Assembly (NCBI GenBank): GCA_005240075.1
Contig: SBBF01000080.1
Coordinates: 1-29,838, forward strand
DNA from: Nitrospira sp.
GTDB taxonomy: Bacteria > UBA10199 > SBBF01
Reading direction: 5' to 3'
Length of the DNA stretch: 29,838 nt
Under the pieces are notes generated by a model. That model was not told the DNA's origin, did not search any database, and saw nothing but the letters and a program-made list of their open reading frames with translations. Shown one piece after another: positions 3,543 to 29,680 of the stretch. The translations under genes and the position numbers were made by a program. Each line of letters opens with the position of its first letter. Within the stretch, counting starts at the first letter, position 1.

Positions 3543-3668
3543 TATACCTTCCCGCTTCGCGATGAAGGAAGCCCCCAATCTCAGAACTGGCTACTTGTAC
3601 TTCGCAAAGCCGATGGCTTTGCTACGCGGCCAAGCCAAGCTTGGCCTTGTAGCCAGATTCTTCGTCAT
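3543..3668 (+). repeat. Composite hairpin element, copy B, expanded with nested hairpins, occupying the whole cysW-cysA intergenic spacer
   Basis: ATACCTTCCCGCTTCGCGATGAAGGAAGC...CTGGCTAC[GCAAAGCC-ATC-GGCTTTGC][GGCCAAGC-CAA-GCTTGGCC]GTAGCCAGATTCTTC. Read on the minus strand it ends GGAAGGTATATAA-ATG, the cysA start. Confidence 0.8.
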
Positions 3669-5387: not shown

Positions 5388-5474
5388 CGGAGAGAGTGGG
5401 ATTCGAACCCACGGTACCGGTGAAGGTACACACGCTTTCCAAGCGTGCGCCTTAAGCCGCTCGGCCATCTCTCC
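5388..5474 (-). tRNA. tRNA-Ser (anticodon GGA), type II with a long variable arm
   Basis: Manual fold: acceptor GGAGAGA/TCTCTCC, anticodon stem CACGC/GCGTG with loop TTGGAAA, a 17-nt variable arm, T-arm GTGGG-TTCGAAT-CCCAC. TATAAT lies about 17 nt upstream. Confidence 0.85.
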
Positions 5475-6597: not shown

Positions 6598-6663
6598 GGC
6601 GGTCGTGTTCTGACTGCTGGCAAGATTATCTTGCCAAAATAAATTAAGTGGATAAGTTGCCTG

Positions 6664-6761
6664 TCAGCCGGGCCCCGTGCAAAGGTATAAATACTCAATC
6701 CCGCCAGATCCGGAAGGAAGCAACGGTAGGTTTTTTTCCTTGTGCCGCGGTCAGCCCGGTG
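6664..6761 (+). ncRNA. ffs: Candidate small SRP RNA (4.5S-type ffs) immediately upstream of dnaX
   Basis: AGAUCCGGAAGGAAGCAACGG at 6707-6726 matches the conserved SRP domain-IV motif GGUCCGGAAGGAAGCAGCC (GGAA tetraloop with an asymmetric AGCA internal loop). The 5' CCGGGC pairs with the 3' GCCCGG, and GUGCAAAGG pairs with CCUUGUGC. The ffs-dnaX-ybaB-recR synteny is known, for example in Bacillus. The ends are approximate. Confidence 0.5.
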
Positions 6762-6768
6762 ATTATTT

Positions 6769-10079: not shown

Positions 10080-10364
10080 ATGAAAACAATGAGCATCCGG
10101 GTTAGTGATTCGGAATTAAAGCAAATCAGCAAATTGGCCAAAACAACCGGTTTGGACAAATCGGCCGCCGCTCGCGAGCTTTTAAGGGACGGCTGGTTTT
10201 TTTATTGGATACGCCAATACCGGGAAAAGAAGGTTTCACTGGAAAATTTGTCCTCCAATCTCAATCTTTCGCTTTCCGAGACGATTGATCTGCTCTCCGA
10301 GTTGGGTATTGAGGCCCCTATCAGCTACGATGATTATGTTTCCGGTTTTAAATTTTTTGGGTAG
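10080..10364 (+). CDS. Putative antitoxin: RHH-like N-terminus fused to a UPF0175-like C-terminus
   Basis: The N-terminus MSIRVSDSELKQISKLAKTTGLDKSAAARELL is ribbon-helix-helix-like. The C-terminus YREKKVSLENLSSNLNLSLSETIDLLSELGIEAPISYDD matches UPF0175 (yreGkiSlgkaAelagms..ef.dlL.erGIp..yd.ed). It starts 3 nt after the PIN gene. Confidence 0.55.
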   Translation: MKTMSIRVSDSELKQISKLAKTTGLDKSAAARELLRDGWFFYWIRQYREKKVSLENLSSNLNLSLSETIDLLSELGIEAPISYDDYVSGFKFFG

Positions 10365-10412
10365 TAGAAAAAGGATTGGGTATCGCAATACCCTCGGGCT
10401 TGAGTTGAAATA

Positions 10413-14254: not shown

Positions 14255-14365
14255 GTGAGTGAGGATCTGGCTTTGCCAGTTATGAGTGAGGATCGAATTT
14301 ACTTCGTCCGAGCGAATACCAAGGGGGTTTATCCAGCACTCAAAAGCTTTTGAGTGCTGGATGAA
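14255..14365 (-). repeat. Inverted copy (A') of the composite element seen at 98-180: CTGGCTTTGCCAG hairpin (14267-14279) plus the perfect 32-nt palindrome ATCCAGCACTCAAAAGCTTTTGAGTGCTGGAT (14331-14362)
   Basis: The reverse complement aligns with 98-180 (CATCCAGCACT.AAAAGCTTTTGAGTGCTGGATAAACCCCC...CTGGCAAAGCCAGATCCTCACTCA) with one internal indel. It is followed by GATGAAGGGGGC and a GGGGGC...GCCCCC hairpin before the tRNA. Confidence 0.8.
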
Positions 14366-14397: not shown

Positions 14398-14487
14398 GGA
14401 GAGGTGGCCGAGTGGTCGAAGGCGCCTGACTCGAAATCAGGTATACCTTTACCGGTATCGTGGGTTCGACTCCCACCCTCTCCGCCA
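14398..14487 (+). tRNA. tRNA-Ser (anticodon CGA), type II, with encoded CCA
   Basis: Manual fold: acceptor GGAGAGG/CCTCTCC, anticodon stem CCTGA/TCAGG with loop CTCGAAA, long variable arm, T-arm GTGGG-TTCGACT-CCCAC, 3' GCCA. Confidence 0.85.
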
Positions 14488-19467: not shown

Positions 19468-20046
19468 ATGTCCCCAAGAAAGTCTGAAACATCCCTGTTT
19501 GAAAAAGCAGTGCGGAAAGTGATCGGATTTTTGGAAGAACAAAAAATTCCCTACTTTGTCCTGGGGGGTCTTGCCGTGGGGGTCATGGGTGAGCCCCGCT
19601 TTACACGCGACATCGATCTCGACATATTTCTCAATACTGATGAAACAGGTCTTCTTTTGAAAAGGCTTAAACAGGCGGGGTTCACATTCAAAGCTAAAGA
19701 GGCCATGGTCACAGCTACCCAATTCGGCACCTTTCGAATATTTTATAAAACGGTTCAAATTGATATGATTATGGCTTCCACTGATCTGGAAAAAGAAGCT
19801 CTGAAAAGAAAAAAACGAGTTTCTTTTTTTAACCAGAAAACATCATTCCCGTCCGCAGAAGATCTGATTCTTCTCAAGTTGATTCCCGGAAGGCCCAAGG
19901 ACCTGCTGGATGCCGAATCAATCATAATCAGACAAAAAGACAAACTCGATCTGTCTTATCTTGAAAAATGGTCTCGTCAAATTTGCGAACTCTCCGAGGA
20001 CTTTCGGGTGATCAATCAATTAAAGAAAATGCTTGAGAAAAACTAG
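19468..20046 (+). CDS. Pol-beta superfamily minimal nucleotidyltransferase (MNT-like, DUF6036-like C-terminus)
   Basis: YFVLGGLAVGVMGEPRFTRDIDLDI has the hG[GS]-x9-13-DhD nucleotidyltransferase signature. The C-terminal LILLKLIPGRPKDLLDAESII motif is shared with the 28100-28591 protein. Confidence 0.55.
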   Translation: MSPRKSETSLFEKAVRKVIGFLEEQKIPYFVLGGLAVGVMGEPRFTRDIDLDIFLNTDETGLLLKRLKQAGFTFKAKEAMVTATQFGTFRIFYKTVQIDMIMASTDLEKEALKRKKRVSFFNQKTSFPSAEDLILLKLIPGRPKDLLDAESIIIRQKDKLDLSYLEKWSRQICELSEDFRVINQLKKMLEKN

Positions 20047-20066: not shown

Positions 20067-22043
20067 ATGACCGATAAAATAGCTGGATTGAAAGGTTTGA
20101 CGGTGGTTTCGTTCGAAAGCCGGATGAAGCTTCCGATGCAACGGTTAATTGAAAAGTATGGTGGAAAAGCTTTTGTCGCCCCTTCAATGAAAGAAGTGCC
20201 ACTGGCCGAAAATCCAGGAGCGTTTGATTTTTTTGAAAAACTGGAGAGAGATCAGTTTGATCTGGTGATTTTGATGACAGGGGTAGCCACCCGAACGCTG
20301 ATCCAGACTCTAGAAACCCGTTTCCCGAAGGAACGAATACTCGAAGCCCTTTCCACCAAGACAAAAATTGTCGTCCGGGGACCCAAGCCGACAGCGGTCT
20401 GCAAAATGAACCATATTCCGATTGTGGTGACCGCCCCCGAACCGAATACCTGGCGCGAAATTCTGGCCATCCTGAACGAAGAACAATTATTGGCCAATAA
20501 GCGAGTTGCCGTATTGGAATATGGCATATCGAATGTCTCGTTTTTGGAGGAACTGCAATTGGCCGGAGCCCAGGTGACCCCCGTCGCTGTTTATCAATGG
20601 GCCTTGCCTGATGATCTAGGCCCCTTAAATCAGGCTGTTGATTTAATCCTGGCTGGTGAGGCAGATCTGGCGCTGTTTACCACGTCGGTTCAGGTTGATC
20701 ATCTCCTAAAAATAACGCGCGAGAGGAAAAAAGAATTGGCCTTGCGTCGGGCTTTTCACAAAATCGGTGTTTGTTCTATCGGTCCCACCACAAGCGAAAA
20801 ACTGCGCGACCACCAAATTTTTCCTGATCTGGAGGCGAGCCCTAATAAAATGGATGCACTCGTGGAACAGGTCTCAGAAAAAGGAAAAGAGATTGTAGAG
20901 CAAAAAAGAGCGCGCTCAGAGAAGAGCTGGATATGGAAGGATTATCCGAAATTACGTAGGGGCGATCCTTGTGATCGCCCATTTGATCGGGCGAAGACAA
21001 GCTTCGCCCCTACGGATTCTCCCCTGATGCGCGCCTGCCGGCGCCAACCAAACAAGACGATTCCCATTTGGCTGATGCGCCAGGCGGGCCGTTATATGGC
21101 GGAGTATCATATTTCGCGACGGGGTTTGGGCTTTTTGGAATTTTGCAAGCGACCCGAGCTCACTGCCGAAGCCACCATCACAGCTGTTGAGCGATTAGGG
21201 GTGGATGCCGCCATCATTTTTGCCGATATTCTGCTGATTGTTGAACCAATGGGACTTAATCTCACTTATCTGGAAGGGGAAGGACCGGTGATTGCCACTC
21301 CAATTCGTGATGAAGAGAGTGTCGGCAAACTTAAACCGGTCGAGGTACAGGAGTCTCTCTGTTATGTTCTGGAAGCGGTCAAGACCGTTCGGCAATCGAT
21401 GCGCCCCGATATTCCTCTGATCGGTTTTTGCGGCGCCCCTTTTACCGTCGCTTCCTACATGATTGAGGGGAGAGGGACGGTGTCCCAAGGCTCCAAAAAT
21501 TTTATTCCGACAAAGATCCTGATGCACCAGCATCCGCAAACCTGGCATGAATTGATGGAAAAAATTACAATCGCTTCGATCGATTATTTGAACGCCCAAA
21601 TTGAAGCGGGAGCCGATGTAGTGCAGATCTTTGACAGCTGGGTGGGGGTTTTGAGCCCGCAAGAATACGAGGAGTATGTTCTTCCTCATTCCAAAAGACT
21701 CATTGATGGAATCAAAAAAGGGGTTCCCGTTATTCATTTTGGAACACAGACCGCTTCTCTTCTTTCCCTGATGAAAAAAGCAGGGGGGGATGTGATCGGG
21801 ATTGATTCAAGGACCGACATCCAAAAAGCGTGGGATCAACTGGGAGAGGTTGCCATTCAGGGAAATCTTGATCCGGTGATTCTTTTTTCAAAGCCTGAGA
21901 TTATTTGCAGGGAGGCCGAAAAAATACTCAAAGCTGTCGGGCACAAACCGGGATTTATTTTCAATCTGGGGCATGGCATTCTGCCGGAAACCCCTGTCGA
22001 CAACGTCATGGCGCTGGTTGATTTTGTCCATGAGGCAAAGTAA
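20067..22043 (+). CDS. hemD-hemE: Apparent fusion protein: uroporphyrinogen-III synthase (HemD, N-terminal, about 1-290) plus uroporphyrinogen decarboxylase (HemE, C-terminal, about 313-658)
   Basis: The HemD-like N-half has two alpha/beta subdomains. The HemE half carries RQPNKTIPIWLMRQAGRYM...PELTAEATI...DAAIIFADIL......GFCGAPFT.ASYM......NLGHGI. There is no in-frame stop across the junction. The linker is encoded by the palindromic doublet 20956-21013. An internal ATG at 21025 could start a separate hemE. Confidence 0.75.
   Translation: MTDKIAGLKGLTVVSFESRMKLPMQRLIEKYGGKAFVAPSMKEVPLAENPGAFDFFEKLERDQFDLVILMTGVATRTLIQTLETRFPKERILEALSTKTKIVVRGPKPTAVCKMNHIPIVVTAPEPNTWREILAILNEEQLLANKRVAVLEYGISNVSFLEELQLAGAQVTPVAVYQWALPDDLGPLNQAVDLILAGEADLALFTTSVQVDHLLKITRERKKELALRRAFHKIGVCSIGPTTSEKLRDHQIFPDLEASPNKMDALVEQVSEKGKEIVEQKRARSEKSWIWKDYPKLRRGDPCDRPFDRAKTSFAPTDSPLMRACRRQPNKTIPIWLMRQAGRYMAEYHISRRGLGFLEFCKRPELTAEATITAVERLGVDAAIIFADILLIVEPMGLNLTYLEGEGPVIATPIRDEESVGKLKPVEVQESLCYVLEAVKTVRQSMRPDIPLIGFCGAPFTVASYMIEGRGTVSQGSKNFIPTKILMHQHPQTWHELMEKITIASIDYLNAQIEAGADVVQIFDSWVGVLSPQEYEEYVLPHSKRLIDGIKKGVPVIHFGTQTASLLSLMKKAGGDVIGIDSRTDIQKAWDQLGEVAIQGNLDPVILFSKPEIICREAEKILKAVGHKPGFIFNLGHGILPETPVDNVMALVDFVHEAK
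20956..21013. repeat. REPIN-like inverted doublet of 25-nt GTAG-initiated hairpin units, lying inside the hemD-hemE ORF
   Basis: Unit 1 is GTAGGGGCGATCCTTGTGATCGCCC (20956-20980). Unit 2 on the opposite strand is GTAGGGGCGAAGCTTGTCTTCGCCC (21013-20989). The spacer is 8 nt. Each unit folds as a GGGCGA/TCGCCC hairpin. GTAG 5' termini are the hallmark of REP elements. Confidence 0.6.
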
Positions 22044-25493: not shown

Positions 25494-25916
25494 TTACGGC
25501 TTGACGACTGCAAAAATCACAATCGCAATCAAGAGCACGGTTGGTATTTCATTAATCAACCGGCAAGTTTTTTCGGAGAGGAAAAAATTCCCTTCGGCAA
25601 ACCGCCGACGGGTGACCCCGCAAAAAATTTGATACCCGATCAATAATCCAACGAGTGCCAGCTTGAAAACAATCCACGAATTTCCCAGAAACTCTGGATT
25701 GTAAGCCAGCATCCAAAAACCAGAAAGAAGGGTTAAAACCATCGATGGATGCCCGATAAAATAAATCAGTCGATATTCCATTTTCTCGAAAATCTTCGTC
25801 ACTTCAGTCTTCTCCCTGTTTTGCACATGATAAACAAACAGACGAAAAATGTAGAAGAGCTCTGCAAACCAGCAAATCATGAAGATCAGATGAAAAGCTT
25901 TAAGATAAAGATACAT
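25494..25916 (-). CDS. hemJ: Protoporphyrinogen IX oxidase HemJ (UPF0093/CopD-like)
   Basis: MYLYLKAFHLIFMICWFAELFYIFRLFVYH matches the HemJ N-terminus. 140 aa with 4 TM helices. Its start abuts the hemN stop (TGAATG). Confidence 0.8.
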   Translation of the reverse strand: MYLYLKAFHLIFMICWFAELFYIFRLFVYHVQNREKTEVTKIFEKMEYRLIYFIGHPSMVLTLLSGFWMLAYNPEFLGNSWIVFKLALVGLLIGYQIFCGVTRRRFAEGNFFLSEKTCRLINEIPTVLLIAIVIFAVVKP

Positions 25917-27302
25917 TCAGACCGCCCTCGAAAAGGCCGCTGTTTTTGACCTCTCTTTTATTCCTGCATGATACACATCAAACACCATCGCCATGTTGCG
26001 CAAAAACAAACGCCCCTCATTTTTAACCAAAAATGTGGAAGGGAAAATTTCCAGCAAATCGTCCTCAATAAAAGGAACAAGCCCTCTCTTTTCCTGTTCA
26101 AAATAACTCCAAAAATCAAGCCCCCATTTTTTTTCAAAAGAGGGAATATCCACACAACCGCGGCACATGATCTGGGTGATCAAGTCTCGTCTTACATGAT
26201 CATCTCTTTCGAGTAGAAATCCACGAAAAGTGGCTAACTGTCCGCTTGCAATTTTTTCATTATATTTTTTTAAATCTTTTTGGTTCTGAAAATAATTCCC
26301 GTTCACATACGAAATGGCTGAAACGCCGAAACCGATCTGATGGGCTTCAGCCCGTGTGGAATACCCCATAAAATTTCGGTGAATCGTCCCCTCGTCCAGG
26401 GCATGCGCCAGTTCGTCATCTTCAAGGGCAAAATGATCCAGGCCAATCGATCGATAACCATTTTGAGTCAAAATAGGGTAGGCCGTTTCAAAAAGTTTAA
26501 GCTTGATCTCCGGAGAGGGGAGGTCCGAATCGTTGAAAGTCCTCTGGACCGGGCGGGCCCACGGAACATGAGCATAGCTGTAAACGGCCAGACGATTGGG
26601 CCTCAATTCCAGAATCTGCTCCAACGTTCTGATCCATCCGTCCATCGTTTGGCCCGGAAGGCCATAAACCAAATCAATATTAAAGTGCTGGAATCCCAAA
26701 CCTCGAAGATAAGTGATCATGTCGCGCGTCATTTCATAAGTTTGATGGCGGTTGATCAGTTTTTGAACATGCGGATCAAGATCCTGCACACCCAATGAAA
26801 TACGATTAAACCCGAGCGTCTTTAAATTATCACAAAAGGATTGTGTTGAAGTGCGTGGATGCATCTCAATCGCCATTTCCGCATCGGGCAAAAGAGTAAA
26901 ACGCCGGCTCACCTTTAAAACAATTTCCGTCAATTCTTCCGGTTGAAAAAAGTTAGGGCTGCCCCCTCCAAAATGGAGTTGGGTGACAGGTGGGGCAGGG
27001 CTTGCCCTGCCCTTACACATTTGATTTAATACCAAATCAATTTCTCTCAACAAAATATCCGTATAGTCCCGCGACCGGCTCTGATCTTTGGTGATCACCT
27101 GCATGCATCCACAAAAATGGCAGAGGTTTTCGCAAAAGGGGAGATGGAAATAGAGGGATAATTGTTCCCCCATGTCTTTCAACGCCTTTTCATAATCCCT
27201 TGCTGTCACCTGTTCCGTCCAGGCCAACACCGTCGGATAACTGGTATACCGCGGCGCCGGAATATCGTATTTTTTAAGAAGATCACAAAGAGAGGGGGGC
27301 AT
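25917..27302 (-). CDS. hemN: Oxygen-independent coproporphyrinogen III oxidase (radical SAM)
   Basis: YTSYPTVLAW, radical-SAM CxxxCxxC (CENLCHFC), about 460 aa with a HemN C-terminal domain. Confidence 0.9.
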   Translation of the reverse strand: MPPSLCDLLKKYDIPAPRYTSYPTVLAWTEQVTARDYEKALKDMGEQLSLYFHLPFCENLCHFCGCMQVITKDQSRSRDYTDILLREIDLVLNQMCKGRASPAPPVTQLHFGGGSPNFFQPEELTEIVLKVSRRFTLLPDAEMAIEMHPRTSTQSFCDNLKTLGFNRISLGVQDLDPHVQKLINRHQTYEMTRDMITYLRGLGFQHFNIDLVYGLPGQTMDGWIRTLEQILELRPNRLAVYSYAHVPWARPVQRTFNDSDLPSPEIKLKLFETAYPILTQNGYRSIGLDHFALEDDELAHALDEGTIHRNFMGYSTRAEAHQIGFGVSAISYVNGNYFQNQKDLKKYNEKIASGQLATFRGFLLERDDHVRRDLITQIMCRGCVDIPSFEKKWGLDFWSYFEQEKRGLVPFIEDDLLEIFPSTFLVKNEGRLFLRNMAMVFDVYHAGIKERSKTAAFSRAV

Positions 27303-27354: not shown

Positions 27355-28110
27355 TCAAAATGGACGGGGTTGAGGTGCGGAATTACCTGCAAACAGGTTT
27401 AACAAAACCTTAAGAAAGGGATAAGGGACCTGAAAAATTCTCTCAGCTCCTACTTTCGTAACTTTGCCCAGGCCGATTTTGCAGAGTGCCATGAGTTCGG
27501 AATAAACGGGCTGATAACTTTGACCGAGGGCAAAAGAGATTTCGAGGGCATTTCCCTCTTTGTTTTTTATAAAATAGCTGAAAATCTCCGCACGCGTCCC
27601 AGCCCCAAAAAGGGCCCTCAGAGCCAAGTTGGGATTATTTCTTAAAACGTAGGGTTTCTCAAGAATAGCTTCCCCCATAGTACTCATTTCCCGAGAGATT
27701 AAATTCCAACGTTTCCAAACGGACAAACATTCTTCCTGGTTCAATTCTGATTCTGTTGGAGATCTTCCAATTCTTCTGAAAAGGAATTCGGGCTTATTCA
27801 ATTTCCGACAATATCTTCGAACGGCCTTTAAAACAGAGCGTGGATTAATCTCAATAACAGAATCGATGACTGCCCCCAACACCGCTGTCTGCTTTTCCTG
27901 TCGGACAAAACGAATGAGCCTGCTTCCATTGACAAGGTCATGGTGTTTTAACAGCCACCCTCGCATCCCAAAAAGCAGACGTGAATCGTCGCGACCCGCT
28001 TGCGATGTTTCAACAAGGATCTTTTCCAAATCAACAAGGTCCTCCACGGAAAATGACTGATCGAAAGCCACTCCCAGCCGGGTCCATAGAGTGTATAAGT
28101 CACTCAACAA
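27355..28110 (-). CDS. Hypothetical 251-aa protein: a possible HEPN-like N-region (RGWLLKH = R-x5-H) with a C-terminal winged-helix. Candidate partner of the upstream nucleotidyltransferase
   Basis: It overlaps the upstream NTase gene by 11 nt, suggesting an operon. The C-terminal LALRALFGAGTRAEIFSYFIKNKEGNALEISFALGQSYQPVYSELMALCKIGL resembles a wHTH. FGMRGWLLKHHDL fits the HEPN Rx4-6H motif. The assignment is inferential. Confidence 0.45.
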   Translation of the reverse strand: MLSDLYTLWTRLGVAFDQSFSVEDLVDLEKILVETSQAGRDDSRLLFGMRGWLLKHHDLVNGSRLIRFVRQEKQTAVLGAVIDSVIEINPRSVLKAVRRYCRKLNKPEFLFRRIGRSPTESELNQEECLSVWKRWNLISREMSTMGEAILEKPYVLRNNPNLALRALFGAGTRAEIFSYFIKNKEGNALEISFALGQSYQPVYSELMALCKIGLGKVTKVGAERIFQVPYPFLKVLLNLFAGNSAPQPRPF

Positions 28111-28591
28111 GGTTCCATTCCTCCAATCGAAGTTTTATATGGAGCGCCGTTTTTGGATCGAATCTGGAAATCCGCTCCAGATTTTTCATGATAATGGCCG
28201 TGTCTTTTTTACCGATCTCCAAAAATTGAATATCTGCCAAATCTCTTTCCCTGGCCGCTTTCAGTTTTAACATCAAAAGATCGGGTTTTCCCAAAGAGCT
28301 TATTTTCAGATTCTTCAATCCAAGCTTCAGCGGTATCAGCCTTTCTGTCCAGCCTTCCGGCAAGTAACTGGCATAGCCTTTACAAGAATCATTGAGCCAC
28401 TCGGTTGAAAGTCCTTCTTCCAGCGCAATCTTCTTTACTTTTTCTCGCAAGGACTCTGAAAGAGGAACGGGTGCGATGACATCGACATCCTGGGTTTGCC
28501 TTTTCCCTTTAAATGCCAGGGCCACAGCCATACCGCCGCAAATAATCAGAGTTTCCTTCTTTTCCAGTTCCGAATTCAATCTCCCAAGCAA
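28100..28591 (-). CDS. Pol-beta superfamily minimal nucleotidyltransferase (MNT-like)
   Basis: LIICGGMAVALAFKGKRQTQDVDVI has the GG...DxD nucleotidyltransferase motif. C-terminal LLMLKLKAARERDLADI is similar to the 19468 protein. The start appears to be a TTG, and no good SD is visible. Confidence 0.55.
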   Translation of the reverse strand: MLGRLNSELEKKETLIICGGMAVALAFKGKRQTQDVDVIAPVPLSESLREKVKKIALEEGLSTEWLNDSCKGYASYLPEGWTERLIPLKLGLKNLKISSLGKPDLLMLKLKAARERDLADIQFLEIGKKDTAIIMKNLERISRFDPKTALHIKLRLEEWNLVE

Positions 28592-28643
28592 TGCGATGAG
28601 ATCCAGGGGTGTCTCCTTTCTCTCAAAGAAATATAATCCAAGT

Positions 28644-28658
28644 TATTGCATTATGCAA
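28644..28658. promoter_or_regulatory. 15-nt palindrome ATTGCATTATGCAAT about 55 nt upstream of the NTase operon start: candidate operator
   Basis: Perfect inverted repeat ATTGCAT-T-ATGCAAT next to a TATAAT-like sequence, in the leader of a TA-like operon. Confidence 0.4.
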
Positions 28659-28961
28659 TAGTTATTTTCTCCAGACAAGATTGAAGTCTTGAATGTCATC
28701 GCCGGCTTCAATTCAATTTTTGATCTCTGCCGCGGATGGGGATAGGCGCCGTAGAGCATGATGCCGGGTCGAACCCATCCATGACCGGAAAGATTCCGGT
28801 CAATAATGGCAGACGAATTGGCGAAGGGACAATGTCATTTTTTAAATCAAGCAAAAATTCAATTTCGGATTAATGATAAATATTAAATAAATTCAATAGT
28901 TTAATAATTTTTACAACTAAAATTTAATTATTTTTTATTTTATCAATCATTATTTTTAATT

Positions 28962-29396
28962 CTAAATTAAAGATTCTGGCAACACGATAAACCCTTCTTG
29001 CATGGCCGCTTCCCGAAGGCGTGTATCCAAACATACAAAGGCATGATTCTTGGGAAAGCCTTGTGCCCAGAGAAGAGCGGCAGCCAATTGGAGTGAATCA
29101 GCGGCTCTCAAGGGATGCAACAAAAGAAGCCTGCCCACCTGATCCCGAATCATTTGACTGGGAAGAATTTCGGTCCAATTTTGGGCCAAAAGATCTACAA
29201 GATGACGAACCATCCGTTCCTGATCAGTTGTTAATACGGCCTCCCGCCTTAAACGAGCAAAAGCCGAATCACACTCGGTCACGGAATTCCACCAAACAAC
29301 AATGGAAGAATCATCTTCAAGAATTTTTTTCACAAGAGGGGTGTTGGATTCTTCACAACAAAGCGGTATGAGGGCGGAGGAATCCCAAAATTTCAC
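28962..29396 (-). CDS. vapC: PIN-domain ribonuclease toxin (VapC-like)
   Basis: MKFWDSSALIPL (first acidic residue), ...ADSLQLAAALLWAQGFPKNHAFVCLDTRLREAA (distal Asp), 144 aa. It overlaps the upstream antitoxin by 4 nt. Confidence 0.7.
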   Translation of the reverse strand: MKFWDSSALIPLCCEESNTPLVKKILEDDSSIVVWWNSVTECDSAFARLRREAVLTTDQERMVRHLVDLLAQNWTEILPSQMIRDQVGRLLLLHPLRAADSLQLAAALLWAQGFPKNHAFVCLDTRLREAAMQEGFIVLPESLI

Positions 29397-29680
29397 CGTT
29401 GGTTCCTCTCTTCCATCAAGGCTGCCATGGCCAGCCCCCTCGGATCAACAGGATGCGGAAGGGACCAAAAAGATGCCGGCACTTTTCCCGAACCAAGCCG
29501 GACAAGCCCTTCTTGAACCATTTCTTTTAAATAAGGGGAGATAGCTGATGGAGAGATAAAAGGAATAATGCGGGCTACCGGTTGACCACGGTCGGTTACA
29601 ATCACTTCTTCCCCTTTTTTAACATGCTGGAGGTGACTGCTTAAACGCGCTTTCAGTTTTGATATGGTTGTGCTTTTCAT
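29393..29680 (-). CDS. Phd/YefM-family antitoxin
   Basis: MKSTTISKLKARLSSHLQHVKKGEEVIVTDRGQPVARIIP is the classic Phd/YefM N-terminus. It is translationally coupled to vapC. Confidence 0.7.
   Translation of the reverse strand: MKSTTISKLKARLSSHLQHVKKGEEVIVTDRGQPVARIIPFISPSAISPYLKEMVQEGLVRLGSGKVPASFWSLPHPVDPRGLAMAALMEERNQR

Follow-up and report, generated by a model that had tools for sequence, protein, structure and literature searches.

The AbiE pair, AbiEi/AbiEii, was reported by Dy et al. (2014, PMC3985639) to be both a type IV toxin-antitoxin (TA) and an abortive infection system, the active site of the AbiEii/DUF1814 nucleotidyltransferases (NTases) being described by four motifs, namely motif I (hG[GS]), motif II (R..DhD, with a long spacer before DhD), motif III (KLxAaxxR), and motif IV (+DxxD). 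In MenAT1 (MenA1/MenT1) of M. tuberculosis (PMC10435456, PMC11375011; PDB 8an4), T39 of the toxin MenT1 is the site of antitoxin-induced autophosphorylation and D41 coordinates Mg2+ (PMC11375011). A third group for comparison comprises the HEPN/MNT modules, in which the NTase MntA modifies its partner HepT. The subject of the present analysis is a two-gene module on the minus strand of contig SBBF01000080.1 (Nitrospira sp., assembly GCA_005240075.1), the whole 29,838-nt stretch of which is referred to hereafter as the window. Its first gene encodes a compact NTase of about 170 aa and its second a 251-aa protein, termed here the partner.

On balance, and by analogy with the systems above, we favour reading this module as a reversed-order AbiE/MenAT-like NTase toxin-antitoxin or abortive infection pair. 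The NTase is likely to be the effector, and the 251-aa protein likely a regulator or neutraliser and not an RNase toxin. The roles are so assigned because the partner is devoid of conserved catalytic residues and carries a DNA-binding domain while the active site of the NTase is complete, and also because the NTase was found to decay beside an intact partner. An earlier reading made from the sequence alone (the sequence-only reading) had proposed the opposite, with the NTase as neutraliser and the 251-aa protein as effector, and these roles are likely reversed. The resemblance to AbiE extends to a bicistronic arrangement of a Pol-beta-superfamily NTase with a folded two-domain protein containing a winged helix-turn-helix (wHTH), an inverted repeat at the promoter (serving negative autoregulation in AbiE), recognisable NTase motifs I to IV including the Arg of motif II, and an association with mobile elements. 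There are differences too. Here, the NTase gene comes first and the wHTH is C-terminal instead of N-terminal, the other domain of the partner is all-alpha and lacks sequence similarity to AbiEi (COG5340), the NTase has about 170 aa as compared with about 280 aa and belongs to DUF6036 while scoring below the PF08843 threshold, and a single compact 17-nt palindrome stands in place of two 23-bp inverted repeats.

Both open reading frames (ORFs) of the sequence-only reading were recovered on the minus strand as TTG-start frames, the NTase of 163 aa at 28100-28591 and the partner of 251 aa at 27355-28110, sharing the 11 nt at 28100-28110 through which the partner is translationally coupled to the NTase. 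Homologues of the NTase are 167-172 aa long and start about five codons upstream of the TTG at 28591, a position at which the window offers no ATG, GTG, or TTG. The frame remains open to 28642, bounded by a TAA at 28643-28645, and the codon near the homologous start is a CTG at 28606, with a Shine-Dalgarno-like AAGGAG read from the sequence at 28613..28618 on the minus strand, 6 nt upstream. With the start thus placed by homologues, the gene of the putative effector or toxin would span 28100..28606 (minus strand) and encode 168 aa. As for the partner, the first 16 residues, MxxxLYxxWxRLGVGF, are kept across 56 homologues, so that the deposited 238-aa call (P0001) is too short and the 251-aa start appears to be the right one. 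The deposited NTase call (P0059) is 143 aa long and, with an internal Met as its start, would lack the catalytic GG. Both deposited calls are therefore in need of correction as too short, that of the NTase being stripped of its catalytic glycines.

The conservation of the pair was assessed in loci gathered via reference genomes, metagenomes, and exact-protein look-ups for relatives of the partner. Of the distinct loci, 16 retain upstream DNA, and in every one of them a DUF6036 NTase or its remnant lies directly upstream of the partner on the same strand, which bears out the co-occurrence that the sequence-only reading had put forward as a check, and the two genes usually overlap by 4-26 nt. 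The pairing persists as partner identity falls from 82% to about 24%, covering close loci at 47-82% identity (L001-L004, L006-L011, L014, L021-L025, and L028-L030) and distant ones (L016; L017-19, with a 345-aa partner class at about 24% identity; L020; L026; L027). In L020, the contig end truncates the upstream ORF, which is still recognisable as an NTase C-terminus. The metagenome-assembled genomes (MAGs) or contigs carrying the pair bear the labels Deltaproteobacteria, Nitrospirales, Victivallaceae, and Solirubrobacterales. Across the loci, no further neighbour is conserved, none of the 249 fetched proteins is an NTase-partner fusion, and relatives are absent from the PLSDB plasmids, INPHARED phages, and IMG/VR viral contigs. 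That the NTase and its partner constitute a conserved pair is strongly supported. One short contig, L014, appears to hold two modules in tandem, with a partner C-terminus (11-322) followed some 680 nt later by a complete NTase (1001-1498) and the start of another partner (1491-1664).

An exhaustive profile search placed 967 representatives of 50%-identity clusters in the partner family at E<=1e-3, and 340 at E<=1e-10; those relatives bearing any name are all called "hypothetical protein". The module is uncharacterised, as the sequence-only reading had described it, and so far unnamed, with the partner belonging to no Pfam, NCBIfam, or PADLOC family. A literature search returned no paper mentioning DUF6036, and the single paper on DUF2204 was irrelevant.

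The NTase itself matches Pfam DUF6036 (PF19502) with an E value of 3e-16 and 59.9 bits against a cut-off of 23.6, and PF19502 is carried by all of its close homologues. The only other Pfam families returned were AbiEii and DUF2204, both sub-threshold. PADLOC yielded AbiEii models only, seven in number and all weak (best E 5e-6), and a few homologues carry precomputed PF08843 matches. An alignment of 31 sequences (A4, from which the residue numbering is taken), including the NTases of two distant partners and the second NTase of the window, revealed G27, G28, A30, R39, T41, D43, D45, D112, and K117 to be invariant in all 31, with R122, D125, and D128 nearly so. The GG...DVD motif noted in the sequence-only reading is present as hGG-x14-DVD, with an Arg four residues before the first Asp (R-x-T-x-D-x-D), while KLKAARER fits motif III and RDLAD fits motif IV, the last two being contiguous and not separated as in AbiEii/DUF1814. 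On these motifs, the NTase carries the AbiEii/MenT active-site signature, with each of motifs I to IV represented.

The best solved sequence relative of the NTase, and its top PDB match, is the toxin MenT1 (8an4), at an E value of 0.028, followed by lincosamide NTases and a fungal NTase at 0.05-0.14. MenT1 is likewise a short NTase toxin, of 196 aa, and T41-x-D43 of the T-x-D-x-D motif aligns on its T39-x-D41; K117 here may be compared with K137 of MenT1, and a downstream Asp is also shared. By analogy with MenT1 and MenT3, control might be exerted through autophosphorylation of the invariant active-site Thr. The system differs from MenAT1 in that the similarity to MenT1 is marginal. MenA1 is small and is not known to carry a DNA-binding domain, and control of MenAT1 is reported to be post-translational.

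The second gene product is far less familiar. The AlphaFold2 model of the 251-aa partner, built with a 56-sequence alignment, reached a predicted local distance difference test (pLDDT) value of 94.3, and residues 1-170 (27601..28110, minus strand) modelled alone gave an all-alpha domain with a pLDDT of 93.5. The remainder (27355..27600, minus strand) begins with a C-terminal ArsR-like wHTH at about residues 171-241, continues into a tail of low confidence, and includes the stop codon. The wHTH proposed in the sequence-only reading is thus upheld, since both the predicted fold and profile similarity point to an ArsR-like winged helix. The final 70 or so residues match ArsR/SmtB proteins such as CzrA (1r1u) in sequence profile and in fold, and a palindromic operator overlapping the promoter is a further likeness. 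Where the module departs from ArsR/SmtB is in the fusion of the wHTH behind a novel domain of 170 residues and in the gene that would be regulated, an NTase and not a metal efflux gene.

A Foldseek search with the N-terminal domain found nothing significant, and no HEPN match. No Pfam, NCBIfam, or PADLOC family was found for this domain in the window protein, and Pfam searches of 54 diverse partner members returned wHTH families only, a sub-threshold CdiI_ImmP match in one distant member being disregarded. The N-terminal domain is accordingly regarded, at the level of sequence families, as probably new. A correspondence to AbiEi's C-terminal domain was considered and rejected, with Rv2827c ranking only 34th in the Foldseek search (E 7.9, TM 0.33) and hhalign giving a probability below 1% against two AbiEi proteins from the fetched loci; the resemblance amounts to an unconfirmed hint, and no homology is claimed.

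Across the wider family of 54 members, the only conserved partner residues are W9, G13, E29, W52, R165, G169, and G221. This pattern fits a structural or binding domain and not an enzyme, and no plausible catalytic residue survives. The R-x5-H string (RGWLLKH), which the sequence-only reading had considered compatible with a HEPN RNase active site, is indeed present in the window protein, but close homologues in the 56-sequence alignment have L, Q, H, V, or I in place of R50, and neither R50 nor H56 is conserved among the 54 broader members, the His being lost in distant ones. The HEPN fold and motif thus both fall away. In the recognition helix of the wHTH, S198 and Y199 are invariant in the close family, and P201, V202, and Y203 nearly so. 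A second size class of partners, of about 320-350 aa (P0144, P0176, P0189, P0206, and others), is extended at the C-terminus by about 100 aa and still follows a DUF6036 NTase (L017, L026, L027), and one 666-aa relative (P0162) is fused to DUF5677.

Upstream of the pair, the sequence-only reading had reported a perfect 15-nt palindrome as a candidate operator. The palindrome is real and perfect, but its length is 17 nt, TATTGCAT-T-ATGCAATA at 28644..28660 (unstranded), and it fits the family consensus TATTG-N7-CAATA. Taken alone it is not remarkable: perfect palindromes with a loop of no more than 3 nt and arms of 8 nt or longer number 13 in the window, as compared with about 1.9 expected in block shuffles. 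It gains significance because it is conserved in homologous loci. Each close locus has the consensus exactly once, in every case upstream of the NTase and 16-37 nt from its start, and the 176 kb of fetched loci contain it nowhere else. The invariant residues of the recognition helix in the close family are matched by an invariant operator half-site. Within the window, further matches at 10203 and 10374, one within a small RelB-like ORF and one just past it, fit chance, with 7 of 100 shuffles giving at least three matches. That ORF (94 aa, 10080-10364, plus strand) has a weakly RelB-antitoxin-like N-terminus (NCBIfam E 4.5e-4, below cut-off); it holds the match at 10203, while the match just downstream at 10374 has one mismatch.

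A candidate promoter on the minus strand (28630..28658) has its -35 element, TTGCAT (28658-28653), within the left half-site, and a spacer of 17 nt separates this from a -10 element, TATATT (28635-28630). The -35 element agrees with only three of six consensus positions, so that it is unlisted by a consensus scan and is identified here at consensus level. A -35-like TTGnnn begins in the left half-site in 10 of 10 loci, with a spacer of 16-17 nt, and a -10-like TAnnnT follows in nine of them (TTAAAT in L022), the match to TATAAT being 3-6 of 6. An alternative promoter-like site on the same strand, TTGTCT-17-CATAAT (28650..28678), has its -10 inside the palindrome and agrees with 9 of 12 consensus positions, no more than is found in shuffles. 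The palindrome therefore takes on the appearance of a conserved, predicted operator lying over the -35 and spacer of the module promoter, in keeping with the palindromic operator of the sequence-only reading, and a protein bound to it would occlude the core promoter with either promoter candidate. In six of the 10 close loci (L014, L002, L003, L009, L004, and L021), only 5-6 nt lie between the end of the -10 and the NTase start, so that a leaderless mRNA is predicted there; the window and L010 have a leader of 23-27 nt, that of the window holding the AAGGAG.

Distant loci carry other inverted repeats at the same place, such as 15-nt arms abutting the ATG in L017 and 6-nt arms, ACGAGA-N9-TCTCGT, in L027, and the recognition helices of distant partners also differ. 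Such paired differences would look like a co-evolving repressor and operator. Autorepression of the module by its own partner through this operator is very probable, and the autoregulation within a single polypeptide envisaged in the sequence-only reading is plausible for a partner ending in a wHTH. Other palindromes of the window are located at 3604-3646, 6618-6636, 14338-14355, and 26994-27011, some of which may be terminators or operators.

The genomic surroundings of the module are mobile or rich in TA genes. One copy (L022/23) lies among tail, baseplate, and endolysin-like genes in a region resembling a prophage, and another (L024/25) in a conjugative element that also encodes TrbI, TraG, ArdA, and two canonical AbiE pairs together with a relaxase-like gene, a copy on an element of this type being next to mer genes in one case. 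Integrases and ParE stand beside the module in L028 and transposases in L029, and in L013 and L020 it is found within TA clusters. Autonomous addiction or defence modules are typically found in such settings. In L013, a neighbouring pair of small ORFs looks AbrB/MazE-like by eye only. Decay was asymmetric: in L013 (3792-4810), an intact partner stands beside an NTase remnant of only the C-terminal 70 aa, and in L009 (1751-2323), the NTase has an in-frame stop and the partner is intact. The converse, an intact NTase with a degenerate partner, occurred in no examined locus. The NTase copy of the window itself lacks a canonical start codon.

Taken together, the mechanism proposed for the AbiE/MenAT-like reading is as follows. 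The DUF6036 NTase, with its AbiEii/MenT active site, would act as the effector, arresting growth by nucleotide transfer to some target in the cell, tRNA 3' ends for example, by analogy with MenT and AbiEii. The product of the coupled second gene would be a non-enzymatic two-domain protein, the ArsR-like wHTH of which, presumably as a dimer, binds TATTG-N7-CAATA over the -35 and spacer and so represses the module's own promoter, whereas its novel alpha-helical N-terminal domain may bind and neutralise the NTase or release it conditionally, a role in sensing being a further proposal for this domain.

Several points weigh against this reading and should be given fair consideration. The case for asymmetric decay rests on two loci, both from metagenome assemblies, and L021 and L026 lie in ordinary chromosomal contexts. 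The score of the NTase against AbiEii (PF08843), 19.7 bits, is under the gathering cut-off of 22.5, the MenT1 match is marginal at 0.028, and kindred NTase folds include the harmless antibiotic-modifying Lnu and ANT(2''). The partner, for its part, is without sequence similarity to AbiEi by hhalign, and it is not the upstream COG5340 AbiEi protein, with an N-terminal wHTH and the AbiEi C-terminal domain, that membership of AbiE/MenAT would call for.

Among the rival explanations, the one that fares best, although unlikely, is an inducible small-molecule modification cassette for resistance or detoxification, in which the NTase adenylylates an antibiotic or metabolite in the manner of Lnu/ANT(2'') and the partner is a dedicated repressor with its N-terminal domain as ligand sensor. 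In its favour, this NTase clade bears a weak likeness to NTases of the lincosamide and aminoglycoside kinds, the combination of a repressor and a conserved operator suits an inducible gene, and one copy stands beside mer genes on a conjugative element. Nevertheless, the Arg and Thr before DxD, the KLxA...RDxxD pattern, and the best PDB and PADLOC matches favour the AbiEii/MenT toxins over Lnu. The repressor is coupled downstream of the enzyme in all loci, an arrangement typical of stoichiometric partner proteins, the NTase decays specifically while the partner is retained, and the module turns up time and again within TA or mobile islands.

A shade less probable still is a non-toxic regulatory pair, with the NTase nucleotidylating its wHTH partner or another regulator, or else carrying out housekeeping RNA tailing under the control of the partner. 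The strict co-inheritance and coupling would agree with this, as would the chromosomal contexts of some copies, and the invariant S198 and Y199 (with Y203 nearly invariant) in the recognition helix could serve as modification sites. Against it are the want of conserved neighbouring target genes, the patchy and mobile distribution over MAGs assigned to different phyla, and the restriction of the operator to the module's own promoter, the other matches in the window being consistent with chance. The motif pattern and the coupling geometry count against both of these alternatives, and so do the asymmetric decay and the mobile or TA-island contexts.

Last and very improbable is a HEPN/MNT (type VII) module, in which the NTase would be an antitoxin that nucleotidylates and inactivates the 251-aa protein as a HEPN-like RNase toxin: the NTase-first order with overlap, in what is likewise a mobile two-gene module, mimics mntA-hepT and the R-x5-H string exists in the window protein, but the variable R50, the poorly conserved H56, the partner's want of conserved catalytic residues and of a HEPN fold or conserved Rx4-6H, and an NTase of another family (DUF6036 with AbiEii motifs and not the MntA type of the sequence-only reading) effectively refute it by the criteria that the sequence-only reading had itself set, on both fold and motif conservation, the toxin and antitoxin roles being likely inverted. 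MntA is expected within Pfam NTP_transf_2 or Polbeta, and the NTase of the window matched neither.

In the window, the module lies between hemN (25917-27302, assigned by Pfam as Radical_SAM + HemN_C) and the gene of a Phd-family antitoxin. This Phd/YefM-family gene (Pfam E 5e-10) overlaps a 144-aa ORF by 4 nt (28962-29680, minus strand); the latter has no family or PDB match, its PIN/VapC look being by eye and unconfirmed. Together with the NTase module, the two genes make up a small TA-like cluster at the contig end. Next to hemN, a second haem-biosynthesis gene, hemJ, is found at 25494-25916 (TIGR00701, 137.8 bits, just under the cut-off of 138.05). The second NTase reported in the sequence-only reading was also confirmed outside the module as an unpaired DUF6036-type protein of 192 aa at 19468..20046 on the plus strand (Pfam DUF6036 E 2.7e-6), 23% identical to the first and with no partner gene beside it. 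It shares the T-x-D-x-D and KLxxGRxKD motifs, with weaker Pfam matches to NTP_transf_5, ANT(2''), and AbiEii and weak Lnu matches in NCBIfam. Directly downstream of it is a 658-aa ORF (20067-22043) resembling, by eye, a HemD-HemE fusion. Rfam identified a bacterial small signal recognition particle RNA at 6666-6764 (plus strand) and two tRNA genes at 14398-14484 (plus strand) and 5388-5474 (minus strand).

NTase toxins such as AbiEii and MenT form an emerging class of TA and phage-defence effectors directed at translation. A broader and decidedly more tentative proposal is that the module represents a widespread, undescribed TA or abortive infection family of about 1,000 partner clusters at 50% identity in MAGs of several phyla, with a minimal MenT-like NTase that would poison translation, for instance by nucleotidylation of tRNA 3' ends, and an all-alpha-wHTH partner that would combine antitoxin, trigger sensor, and autorepressor. 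For specialists in TA systems and phage defence, the interest lies in a compact and widespread NTase module with a novel partner domain, although it is not conceptually surprising. The operator prediction, TATTG-N7-CAATA, is directly testable, and the AbiE/MenAT-like reading would give the conserved, family-less N-terminal domain of the partner (about 150 aa) its first testable function. Should the NTase prove toxic, this class of effectors would gain through the module an NTase scaffold of much smaller size and a partner of unrelated architecture.

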